DNA from: a virus
Lineage: Duplodnaviria; Heunggongvirae; Uroviricota; Caudoviricetes
IMG/VR virus record: IMGVR_UViG_2529293036_000024
Reading direction: 5' to 3' (one strand)
Length of the DNA stretch: 39,162 bases
In this document: piece after piece, positions 3,001-6,000 of the stretch
How the letters are laid out: each line of letters starts with the position of its first letter
How positions within the stretch are numbered: the first letter of the stretch is position 1
Program-made: the position numbers

Positions 3001-6000
3001 CAGTTTCTGGATGAAAAGGAAGGTAACCACACCACGGCATACCGTGATGGTGTGGGTATCTGGACCATCTGCCGTGGAGCCACCCGGGTGGATGGTAAGC
3101 CTGTGATTCCTGGCATGAAGCTGTCGAAGGAAAAATGCGACCGGGTTAACGCTATCGAACGGGATAAGGCGCTGGCATGGGTGGCGAAGAACATCAGAGT
3201 GCCACTGACTGAACCCCAGAAAGCGGGTATTGCGTCATTCTGTCCTTACAACATTGGCCCCGGTAAGTGTTTCCCGTCGACGTTTTATAAACGAATTAAT
3301 GCAGGTGATCGAAAAGGTGCCTGCGAAGCGATTCGCTGGTGGATTAAGGACGGTGGCAGAGACTGCCGTATCCGCTCAAATAATTGCTACGGTCAGGTAT
3401 CAAGACGTGACCAGGAGAGTGCGCTGTCATGCTGGGGTATCGACAGGTAAGCAGAATATTTTGCTGAAAAATGACGTTGGCCAACGCGGGCAGATAACAC
3501 GAAATCCTGCGAACTGGCAAAATGTAAGTGAATAAAGTCAACAAGATTGTTTCATGAAGAGGCACCGTAATGGTGCCTTTGTCATTTCTGCGCTTCGCAC
3601 AAGCGTAAATAAACCAAAGAACCTTTCAGGATGAGCCCTGGTGGATAACCGGCAGTGGTCTGGTTAACCCTCTTTGGGCTGGTTATTCCTGTGCGCAGGG
3701 TTCATCACTAAAAGGAAATAACCGATGAATATGATGACCGTGCCGTTTCACGGCGATTCTCTTTATGTGGTTAACCATAACGGCGAACCATACGTTCCCA
3801 TGAAACCTGTCGTTGCGGGGATGGGGCTGGCCTGGCAATCACAGTTGGCTAAGTTAAGACAGCGTTTTGCGTCAACTATAACGGAAATCGTTATGGTTGC
3901 TGAGGATGGGAAACGACGCAATATGGTGTCCCTGCCGCTTCGAAAACTTGCAGGCTGGTTACAAACCATCAATCCCAACAAAGTAAAACCCGAAATCCGC
4001 GGCAAGGTAATCCAGTATCAGGAAGAGTGTGACGATGTTCTCTATGAATACTGGACGAAGGGTTTTGTCGTTAATCCCCGTCGAATGAGTGTGATGGAAG
4101 AACTCAATCAGGCTTGCGCTGACATGAAACGGGATAAAAACATTGCCAGTGTGTTTGCTACCGGGCTGAATGAGTGGAAACAGGTTAAATCCGCGCATGT
4201 ATCAAAAATCCGCACATTGATAAACGAAGCGAATCTGCTGATTGATTTTGTCCTGGCTGATACAGGCAAAGGGAAAATAACAAAGGCGGATTGATGGAGT
4301 GGTGGCTAATGATATCGGATAAACTCATAACGCTGGCGAAGATCCTCTGTGTAATCGTCGGCATTTCATTTTTAGTCATGCTGGTTGCCATTTTCTTTTC
4401 CACCGCCTGGCGAGTCCTGACGTTATCGGGACTGGTGGGGTGAAAGAGAGATGAACCGTGTTCTGTGTGTGGTGATTATTGTCCTGCTGGTAGCCTGTGG
4501 TGCGCTTAGTCTGGGGCTGAATCATTACCGCGATAACGCCATAACCTACAAAGAGCAGCGCGATAAAAAAGTCAGTGAGCTGGAGCTGGCAAATGCAACC
4601 ATTACTGATATGCAGCAGCGCCAGCGTGATGTTGCTGCACTTGATGCCAGATACTCGAGGGAATTAGCCGATGCGAGAGCTGAAAATGAAACTCTTCGCG
4701 CTGACGTTGCCGCTGGTTACCGCAGCCTGCGGATCAACGCCACCTGTCCAGGTCCCGTGCGTGAAGCCACCGGCACCGCCCGCGTGGATAATGCAACCGG
4801 CCCCCGACTGGCAGACACCGCTGAACGGGATTATTTCACCCTCAGAGAGAGGCTGATCACTATGCAAAAACAACTGGAAGGAACCCAGAAGTATATTAAT
4901 GAGCAGTGCAGATAGAGTTGCCCATATCGATGGGCAACTCATGCAATTATTGTGAGCAATACACCCGCGCTTCCAGCGGAGTATAAATGCCTAAAGTAAT
5001 AAAACCGAGCAATCCATTTACGAATGTTTGCTGGGTTTCTGTTTTAACAACATTTTCTGTGCCGCCACAAATTTTGGCTGCATCGACAGTTTTCTTCTGC
5101 CCAATTCCAGAAACGAAGAAATGATGGGTGATGGTTTCCTTTGGTGCTACTGCTGTCTGTTTGTTTTGAACAGTAAACGTCTGTTGAGCACATCCTGTAA
5201 TAAGCAGGGCCAGCGCAGTAGCGAGTAGCATTTTTTTCATGGTGTTATTCCCGATGCTTTTTGAAGTTCGCAGAATCGTATGTGTAGAAAATTAAACAAA
5301 CCCTAAACAATGAGTTGAAATTTCATATTGTTAATATTTATTAATGTATGTCAGGTGCGATGAATCGTCATTGTATTCCCGGATTAACTATGTCCACAGC
5401 CCTGACGGGGAACTTCTCTGCGGGAGTGTGCGGGGATAATCAAAAACGATGCACACCGGGTTTTCTCATTTTTCACGAGATGGGAGCGATTTCCCGCGAA
5501 GCCGCCTGTCCGGTGCGGTGGTGGAAGAAACCGGATAAAACAACCGCATTGTGCAAATATCGATCAAATATGGTGCTGCTGTGTGAAATCTGAAAAATCA
5601 CAGCGGTCATTATGCATCAGTTTTTAACACAGGACGTCAGAACGTGACATGGCAAAGCTGGACTGGAAAAAGCTGGAGCAGGCATTCCGACGCGAACATG
5701 CCGAAACGGGAATAACATTACTGGACTGGTGCCGGAAGAAAAAGATTAATTACAACACCGCCAGAACCCGTATAAAAATGGGCAAAATCGATCATGAAAT
5801 TGATCATAAAACCGATCATGAAATCGATCATGACATCTCAGATGAAGAACCCTGCAATGACGCGGGTTCCGGCGATGAAAAATGTGCAAAAAACTCTGAA
5901 AAAAACTGCGCAAATTCGGCAGAAACGAAACGGATTCGTGGTTCCCGACTTTTACCACCTTCAAACGCTTTTTCTCAGCGAAACACCCACGCCGTAAGAC

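Follow-up and report, generated by a model that had tools for sequence, protein, structure and literature searches.

The window analysed here is a 39,162-nucleotide stretch of DNA from a Caudoviricetes virus (IMG/VR record IMGVR_UViG_2529293036_000024). It carries the late region of a 933W/Sp5-type Shiga-toxin (Stx) phage, and window coordinates are used throughout. Our subject is a short tandem array of GATC-containing units inside terS, the gene for the small terminase subunit, which we consider a probable recognition element of the packaging initiation site (pac). Positions 5400-6700 match 933W, VT2-Sakai, Stx2 phage I and many others at 100% identity, and the 933W counterpart of the open reading frame (ORF) at 5649-6455 is L0112, annotated as a putative small subunit terminase. 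A profile search matched the 268 aa product, TerS, over residues 1-268 to PHROG 370, terminase small subunit (E 5e-125). The gene is followed by terL of the 933W type (6436-8142), which overlaps the end of terS, and then by a P22-like portal gene (PF16510; 8142-10286). Pfam returned no domain for TerS or TerL. The features of the terminase region are listed below with coordinates, strand and basis.

5649..6455, + strand: terS, small terminase subunit (268 aa; 933W L0112); ORF, 933W identity and PHROG 370.
5664..5777, + strand: N-terminal three-helix (helix-turn-helix) DNA-binding module, residues 6-43; AlphaFold2 and weak reciprocal PacA profile matches.
5751..5777, + strand: helix 3 and its C-terminal flank, residues 35-43 YNTARTRIK, candidate recognition helix; model and alignment.
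5784..5831, + strand: 12-bp unit RAAAYYGATCAT in four tandem copies, each a proposed pac recognition site for TerS; codes in this register for residues 46-61; sequence.
5790..5793, no strand: GATC 1, Dam target sequence.
5802..5805, no strand: GATC 2, inside the only full TGATCA hexamer of the array.
5814..5817, no strand: GATC 3.
5826..5829, no strand: GATC 4.
5781..5996, + strand: codons of the predicted disordered linker, residues 45-116; predicted local distance difference test (pLDDT) <50, hypervariable in alignment.
5883..5888, + strand: TGTGCA, a degenerate TGCGCA copy; TGCGCA in most 933W-group relatives.
5907..5912, + strand: TGCGCA hexamer kept downstream of the GATC array, read Cys-Ala.
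6436..8142, + strand: terL, large terminase subunit, 933W type classed as headful; ORF, 933W identity and profiles, label from PMC7317114.

GATC occurs at 5790, 5802, 5814 and 5826, with a step of exactly 12 nt, which confirms the four phased sites described in the initial annotation of this sequence. The four units at 5784-5831 are AAAATCGATCAT, GAAATTGATCAT, AAAACCGATCAT and GAAATCGATCAT; Tandem Repeats Finder delimits the repeat at 5785-5837 (period 12, 4.4 copies, 82% matches, consensus AAATCGATCATG). Read in frame, the array encodes K-IDHE-IDHK-TDHE-IDHD, in agreement with the (I/T)DHE peptide repeat noted earlier, and each GATC is formed by GAT (Asp) and the C of CAT (His). The core GATCA is present in all four units, within the hexamer CGATCA in three and TGATCA in one. 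The array had been placed at the start of the packaging gene; it does lie inside terS, but not at its very start, as it begins 136 nt into the gene (the first GATC is at gene nt 142), immediately past the helix-turn-helix codons.

GATC is depleted across the whole window (99 sites vs 154 ± 12 in dinucleotide-preserving shuffles), which makes the local four-site cluster more conspicuous; the nearest sites outside the array are at 5562 and 6735. When 99 sites were placed at random, at least four fell within 40 nt with P ~0.011, a value to be read with the fact that the four sites are copies of one unit and hence not independent events. The only other 12-nt GATC pair in the window, 17995/18007, is coding, lies beside a 20-bp repeat (18024-18068) and is probably coincidental.

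An AlphaFold2 model of TerS, built from 16 homologues, predicts three N-terminal helices (residues 6-20, 24-31 and 35-41; pLDDT 76-89), a disordered segment (residues 45-116; pLDDT <50) and a helical domain for oligomerisation (residues 113-257). The repeat peptide, residues 47-62, falls at the onset of the predicted disordered linker, a segment that is hypervariable in both length and sequence in the alignment of homologues, and a gap of about 6-10 nt separates the helix-3 codons (YNTARTRIK) from the array. Since the array encodes a linker predicted to be disordered, constraint at the protein level is probably low. A Foldseek search of the PDB with the TerS model returned generic coiled coils only, none at E <= 0.001.

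A parallel to this arrangement is provided by phage P1, whose pac is a 161-bp site within pacA containing seven TGATCA/G hexamers; binding is believed to take place on hemimethylated sites and cleavage on fully methylated ones, cleavage depends on Dam, and synonymous mutation of the hexamers lowers the P1 titre ~9-fold (PMC10028697). In the P1 locus (L082, whose coordinates are used here), the first left-hand hexamer lies 195 nt into pacA. The left-hand GATC sites are at 824, 831, 843 and 858, the cut sites at 905-914 and the right-hand hexamers at 954, 966 and 977. In translation the left-hand hexamers give M-I, I-D-H, N-D-Q and G-D-H and the right-hand ones N-D-R, D-D-H and V-I-T, so that functional Dam hexamers read in such frames also yield Asp-His and Asp-Gln dipeptides.

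The N-terminal module of PacA aligns with that of the window TerS (...NLNPNTARRYLR vs ...INYNTARTRIK, with NPNTARRYL in P1 matching NYNTARTRI in the window). The window TerS has a weak match to phrog_1711, the PacA family (E 3e-5), while PacA, itself a phrog_1711 member (E 4e-202), matches phrog_370 with E 1.9e-4. Direct comparison of the two proteins gave an hhalign E value of 1.1e-4 (probability 56%, residues 5-50) and a BLASTP E value of 0.009. These matches, weak but reciprocal and consistent, and confined to the N-terminal ~50-100 residues, indicate that the N-terminal module of TerS is homologous to that of PacA.

In both phages, then, GATC hexamers lie inside the gene for the small packaging subunit, directly behind the codons of the homologous N-terminal module. 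Like the left-hand cluster of P1, the window has four GATC elements with a GATCA core that are read as Asp-His (Asp-His or Asp-Gln in P1), and spacings of 12 nt are also found in P1 (831 to 843 and 954 to 966). Each phage also carries a predicted adenine methyltransferase, which in 933W is L0094, located just past ninB. The two differ in that the window has a single tandem array, phased at 12 nt and variable in copy number, whereas P1 has two irregular clusters, HEX4 and HEX3, of 4 + 3 hexamers flanking an IHF site and the cut sites; in that three of the four window units are CGATCA, in contrast to the TGATCA/G of P1; and in that the C-terminal part of TerS is unrelated to PacA, the proteins being 268 aa and 397 aa in length, respectively.

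Conservation of the GATC phasing in homologues had been singled out at the outset as informative for a functional role, and it was found in the Salmonella TerS group and in a PacA homologue, other homologues carrying different motifs. The Salmonella proteins are 57-60% identical to the window TerS, and their genes contain 3 or 5 GATC sites at offsets 142, 154, 166, 178 and 190, which match both the offsets and the 12-nt spacing of the window. Their units, AAAAGTGATCAA, AAAAGTGATCAT, AAAAACGATCAT, GAAAGTGATCAA and AAAAACGATCAC, encode SDQK, SDHK, NDHE, SDQK and NDHN, respectively, and contain the hexamers TGATCA or CGATCA. All 11 distinct units from E. coli and Salmonella contain GATCA unchanged: GAT keeps its silent T throughout, whereas the codon after it varies at the third base, which decides between H and Q. 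Elsewhere in these genes GAT is the minority codon for Asp (203 vs 345 GAC).

The PacA homologue is encoded by a 92.9-kb contig, L197 (IMGVR_UViG_2627853687_000001). The protein (425 aa) is a true relative of PacA (phmmer E 2e-31), and its gene has five GATCA motifs at offsets 154-202 with a step of exactly 12 nt, set in non-repetitive flanks. The peptides encoded by the units are all different (RDQA, GDHN, HDHL, SDHA and SDHQ). Because flanks and amino acids differ between units, recent duplication does not account for the array, and synonymous-codon randomisation gave P = 0.0006 for the motif count and 0.003 for the phased run. The L197 array is intermediate between the irregular hexamers of P1 and the tandem array of 933W. 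A further member of the 933W TerS family, L163 (281 aa), contains TGATCA five times, spread over two reading frames, with four of the copies spaced 13/12/12. Viral contigs were also scanned for GATCA-N7-GATCA-N7-GATCA; this bare pattern was rejected as a specific signature, as most of the first 120 viral matches were ordinary low-complexity coding repeats.

Among 64 unique sequences, drawn from bacterial genomes as well as viral contigs, other lineages were found to carry arrays of other motifs at the same position. We refer to TGCGCA arrays as class A and to GATC arrays as class B. The variants of the DNA-binding module are paired with hosts and arrays as follows.

ARR[YH][IL]K: Escherichia coli (75% identical group), Citrobacter, Aeromonas, Serratia, Yersinia and Brenneria; 5-8 TGCGCA(A/G), irregular spacing.
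ART[RQ]IK: 933W group and Salmonella; 3-7 GATCA at 12 nt.
AKRYIT: Pectobacterium and Brenneria; 5-6 ATTCGCA(A/G), two frames.
Unrelated N-domain with homologous C-domain (L120): TCCGTCC/GGACGGA, 4-5 copies.
Unrelated N-domain with homologous C-domain (L121): GGTACGAAA and GTAC variants, ~5 copies.

TGCGCA(A/G) was found at 294 sites in 45 unique regions, distributed over the three reading frames as 227/53/14. With the protein held fixed and the codons redrawn, TGCGCA was observed 6.3 times vs 0.40 expected (p < 5e-4 in 45/45 unique sequences), and TTCGCA, of the ATTCGCA class, 5.0 times vs 0.53 expected. Counts so far above synonymous expectation indicate that these motifs are selected as DNA. 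The linker peptides follow the frame in which the motif is read: TGCGCA gives AQ, VRK or CA, TTCGCA gives SQ or IR, and GATCA gives DH or DQ. The TGCGCA(A/G) array is probably the pac motif of the Aeromonas, Citrobacter, Serratia, Yersinia, Brenneria and E. coli prophages that carry it.

TGCGCA arrays were seen in L057, most of L058-L080, L091-L096 and L100-L115, where terS usually starts at 1501 and the arrays lie ~130-240 nt into the gene, and in the E. coli 75%-identity group, L038-L055. ATTCGCA arrays are present in L097, L098, L099, L106 and L108, ~150-240 nt into terS, and the arrays of L120 and L121 span ~1340-1420 and ~1335-1410 of those loci, respectively. In the window itself, TGTGCA (5883-5888) and TGCGCA (5907-5912), both read as Cys-Ala, follow 52-76 nt past the GATC array, and enteric relatives of both the GATC and the TGCGCA class conserve these downstream TGYGCA hexamers (as ...NCA...). 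They may conceivably form another pac element, comparable to the right-hand cluster of P1.

Each GATC-class lineage is closest to the TGCGCA-class protein of its own host background, as the following identities indicate.

933W vs E. coli class A: N-domain 34/46, C-terminal 143/150.
Salmonella class B vs Salmonella class A: N-domain 39/46, C-terminal 130/150.
933W vs Salmonella class B: N-domain 31/46, C-terminal 95/150.

Both GATC-class lineages have N at residue 36, T in place of R at residue 40 and R or Q in place of Y at residue 41; these helix-3 positions carry the only substitutions that the two lineages share. The units of the two classes differ only in the central palindrome (AAAAGTGCGCAA vs AAAAGTGATCAA, i.e. 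AAAAGT-GCGC-AA vs AAAAGT-GATC-AA). This pattern of substitutions fits a role for helix 3 in reading the centre of the hexamer. A universal helix-3 code, with RR[YH] specifying GCGC and RT[RQ] specifying GATC, was considered and rejected: it holds in the enteric clade and is broken by P1 (TARRYLR) and L163 (TARRYLQ), both of which have TGATCA. Past the linker (window 5930-5990; L030-L036, L038 and L049), alternative segments, ...KRIRGSRLLPPSNAFSQ... or ...KRNSRSGNPHPVARFSD..., are each found in both motif classes, which points to recombination between the N-terminal module with its array and the C-terminal domain.

The initial annotation had raised the possibility of a slippage-prone, length-variable region, and copy number does differ among relatives, from 1 to 7, by whole units. 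Alleles of 1, 2, 3, 4, 5 and 7 units were found, all in frame. A single unit is present in P0020 and two in P0016 (both partial proteins); three in E. coli O26 RM10386 (L083) and in several Stx2a phage records; four in the window and most relatives; five in L033 and P0024; and seven in P0001 (identical with L090), where GATC lies at offsets 142-214. Across 387 E. coli complete-genome records carrying terS of the 933W type, four units were counted in ~366-370 (~95%), three in 17 and five in none. With copy number variable and GATC phasing kept in part of the homologues, the check proposed in the initial annotation did not refute its reading. The array is thus length-variable as slippage predicts, with four units strongly dominant, and a four-codon unit within a disordered linker explains how slippage alleles of 1-7 units survive.

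Insertions were seen at the array in two settings. ISEc8 lies within the array of L084 (E. coli O157:H7 7.1_Anguil), with a junction at locus position ~1500, equivalent to window ~5797. In L123 (LC727841) and seven similar Stx2a phage records, an insertion beginning TGAACCGCCCCGGG, which we take to be an IS629-type end, stands right behind a 3-copy array, with a junction equivalent to window ~5840, and cuts terS to 59 codons. These two independent insertion sequence (IS) events could reflect a target preference of the elements or the decay of defective prophages.

On sequence and by analogy with P1, we judge it reasonably likely that the four phased units are the recognition part of pac. The N-terminal helix-turn-helix modules of an oligomeric TerS would bind successive (A/G)AAAnnGATCA units within the protein's own gene, and this binding would tag the phage concatemer for initial cleavage by TerL, followed by headful packaging towards terL. 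Each unit can be described as an A-tract followed by a near-palindromic hexamer. TerS is modelled as a ring, and on such models units set about one helical turn apart could be bound in succession by adjacent ring subunits. Being 12 bp, or four codons, long, the unit could expand and contract by slippage with the frame intact. As the array codes for a predicted disordered linker, the IDHE-repeat peptide may be largely a by-product of the DNA motif. The most economical reading extends this to the whole small-terminase family, including PacA of P1: the array would be the TerS recognition part of pac, of which 933W has the GATC version. The element in the window is very probably related to pac, and would correspond to a P1-like Dam-site pac reduced to a single phased tandem array of variable copy number in an otherwise different terminase. 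The initial annotation had suggested a pac- or cos-proximal element. Its pac half gains strong comparative support from the P1 parallel and from the family-wide arrays that track the DNA-binding domain, and its cos half is unsupported because 933W-type terminases are classed as headful.

With GATC in every unit, the site can be methylated by Dam of the host and perhaps also by the adenine methyltransferase predicted in the phage itself. The methylation state may gate binding or cleavage, as in P1, and by this analogy Dam-methylation gating of packaging is plausible. Sister lineages use motifs that lack GATC, and gating therefore cannot be the core mechanism of the family.

A number of observations weigh against the assignment of the array to pac. 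The full TGATCA hexamer is present in just one of the four units. The pairing of helix and motif is not universal, as P1 and L163 combine ARRYL with TGATCA and class A combines ARRY[IL]K with TGCGCA; moreover, helix 3 is only ~10 nt from the array, so their co-inheritance could be partly physical linkage. The window array is a pure tandem in one frame and, taken alone, fits plain slippage (p ~0.02-0.07 in synonymous randomisation); P1 pac itself gives p = 0.07 in the same procedure, which therefore has low power, and the value for the window is not decisive either way. Of the other components of the P1 system, a second GATC cluster was not found in the window near terS (the next site is 6735), a consensus scan of 5320-6634 for the IHF site WATCAANNNNTTR with <=1 mismatch found none, and TerL is unrelated to PacB of P1 (BLASTP best E 3.7). 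A possible association of a phage-encoded methyltransferase with the GATC class was looked for: 933W encodes one, six class-A E. coli prophages, mutual near-duplicates, show no such gene in the NinB-Q interval, and the contig of Salmonella class B stops 7.6 kb upstream. Full-text literature searches returned no mapped pac or virion ends and no PhageTerm pac call for any 933W-type phage, and PhageTerm analysis of a 933W-like phage gave an uninformative "Mu-like" result (PMC7946995).

The main rival holds that the array is a neutral by-product, a low-complexity stretch born of slippage in a tolerant disordered linker; Asp-His codons would give rise to GATC by chance, and the repeat would serve no purpose as DNA. 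Four units in one frame at an exact 12-nt spacing are as tandem duplication predicts; copy number drifts from 1 to 7, the linker is hypervariable and predicted to be disordered, and synonymous randomisation for the GATC class is marginal (p 0.02-0.17). Against it stand the phased GATCA of L197 in non-repetitive flanks (p 0.0006/0.003), the use of two reading frames in L163 and P1, and the invariance of GATCA in diverged E. coli and Salmonella units despite peptide change. Relatives have other motifs at this position in several frames, at 10-15 times the synonymous expectation, and four copies are kept in ~95% of the 387 E. coli records. We regard neutral slippage as unlikely. A role for the encoded protein has a still smaller probability in our view. 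In that case the (I/T)DHE repeats would form a His/Asp/Glu-rich metal-binding or spacing element, with copy number tuning the length of the linker between the DNA-binding and oligomerisation domains. The repeat is indeed translated, always in frame, it is rich in D, H and E, and each copy step alters the linker by 4 residues. Yet in Salmonella GATCA persists although I/T, H and E give way to S/N, Q and K, close relatives with a 95% identical C-terminal domain carry SAQK repeats instead, the linker peptides of the family are set by the motif frame (AQ, VRK and CA all derive from TGCGCA), and the region is predicted to be disordered.

At least as improbable is a regulatory GATC cluster of the Dam/SeqA type unrelated to pac, in which a hemimethylated array would bind SeqA or a similar protein and time late-gene expression or replication, or in which TerS would autoregulate its own gene. 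Four GATC sites at a 12-nt spacing resemble the situation at oriR and the kilA promoter of P1, where close-set GATC clusters carry a Dam-site annotation, and 933W has its own predicted adenine methyltransferase. Against this, scans for promoter-like signals, terminator-like signals and Rfam families were negative at or near the array, which sits 136 nt inside a late gene; sister lineages hold non-methylatable TGCGCA or ATTCGCA arrays in its place, and the arrays track the DNA-binding module of TerS. SeqA-bound clusters such as E. coli oriC and P1 oriR likewise have several GATC sites about one helical turn apart (spacings of 7, 10, 11 and 23 in oriR, 12 nt in the window), but they are non-coding origin DNA acting through hemimethylation and sequestration, whereas the window array is coding and is replaced by non-GATC motifs in sister lineages.

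A pac element within terS would agree with what is known of other headful phages. Location of pac inside the small terminase gene is the rule for P22, Sf6, SPP1 and P1. As proposed for the window, the sites in P22 gene 3 and Sf6 gene 1 and the pacL/pacR boxes of SPP1 place the target of the small terminase in or next to its own gene, with packaging towards terL. P22 has a single asymmetric site of ~22 bp and SPP1 has boxes flanking the cut; we know of no Dam-site array among the P22, Sf6 and SPP1 sites, and of none that varies in copy number. The window TerS also differs from the P22, Sf6 and SPP1 proteins in family and fold, having no Pfam or PDB fold match. The same logic, an array of binding sites within the gene of the protein that binds them, such that specificity module and target travel together, applies to the ori iterons of lambda and 933W. 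The O gene of 933W contains six annotated 18-bp iterons, and in lambda the iterons are located in the region of O that codes for the linker between domains. The O iterons differ in serving replication initiation, belonging to another protein family, being longer and lacking Dam sites.

In the literature, "headful (933W type)" is in use as a TerL class (PMC7317114), headful phages are described as commonly carrying pac in or near terS (PMC6029569), and differences in packaging initiation sites are stated to be unknown (PMC7317114, PMC6029569). These two papers and PMC7946995 treat the site at which packaging begins as uncharacterised. Two apparent clues to the virion ends in GenBank records were discarded. 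The Sato records AP004402, AP005153 and AP005154 begin at window 6888, which is an XhoI site (CTCGAG), making the record origin arbitrary; and the note in PV189403, "circularly permutated genome; the cohesive ends...", is boilerplate in a record that starts at terL.

The 933W-type ("Sepvirinae") phages bear the Shiga toxin genes of enterohaemorrhagic E. coli, and their terminase is a reference class in phage genomics. A specific 48-bp pac candidate bears on where Stx-phage packaging would start, and hence on which way, and how far, lateral or generalised transduction would extend from Stx prophages. It also makes Dam gating of packaging and the evolution of small-terminase specificity open to experiment; Dam has been linked to 933W lysogeny. 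Near-minimal natural pairs, which combine changes at residues 36, 40 and 41 with GCGC vs GATC in an otherwise 95%-identical protein, are ready-made specificity swaps, and the family-wide rule of a motif array just past the DNA-binding codons could be used to predict pac in unannotated prophages. More tentatively, the helix-3 segment and the array may together form a portable packaging-specificity cassette, in which the motif (TGCGCA, TGATCA, ATTCGCA or others) switches with 2-3 residues of the recognition helix. On this speculative proposal, replacement of GCGC by GATC in the lineages of 933W/Stx and Salmonella would have put packaging initiation under the control of Dam, from the host or possibly the phage enzyme, and alleles of 1-7 units would tune the packaging and transduction efficiency of Stx phages in natural populations.

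Elsewhere in the window, tandem repeats of 99 bp and 45 bp are located at 15867-16106 and 16507-16597, respectively; the 99-bp repeat encodes collagen-like Gly-X-Y triplets, and its gene presumably specifies a tail fibre or side-tail protein. Two Rfam families scored above the gathering threshold towards the right-hand end of the prophage: sok antitoxin RNA (35581-35755, - strand; 113.5 bits) and sRNA-Xcc1 (38107-38195, - strand; 69.1 bits). Close to the sRNA-Xcc1 match, positions 38429-38515 contain a 31-bp tandem repeat, TGTTTGGGGCACTATTGGGGCAAAATGTGGT, in 2.8 copies with 96% matches and an internal TTGGGGCA sub-repeat.

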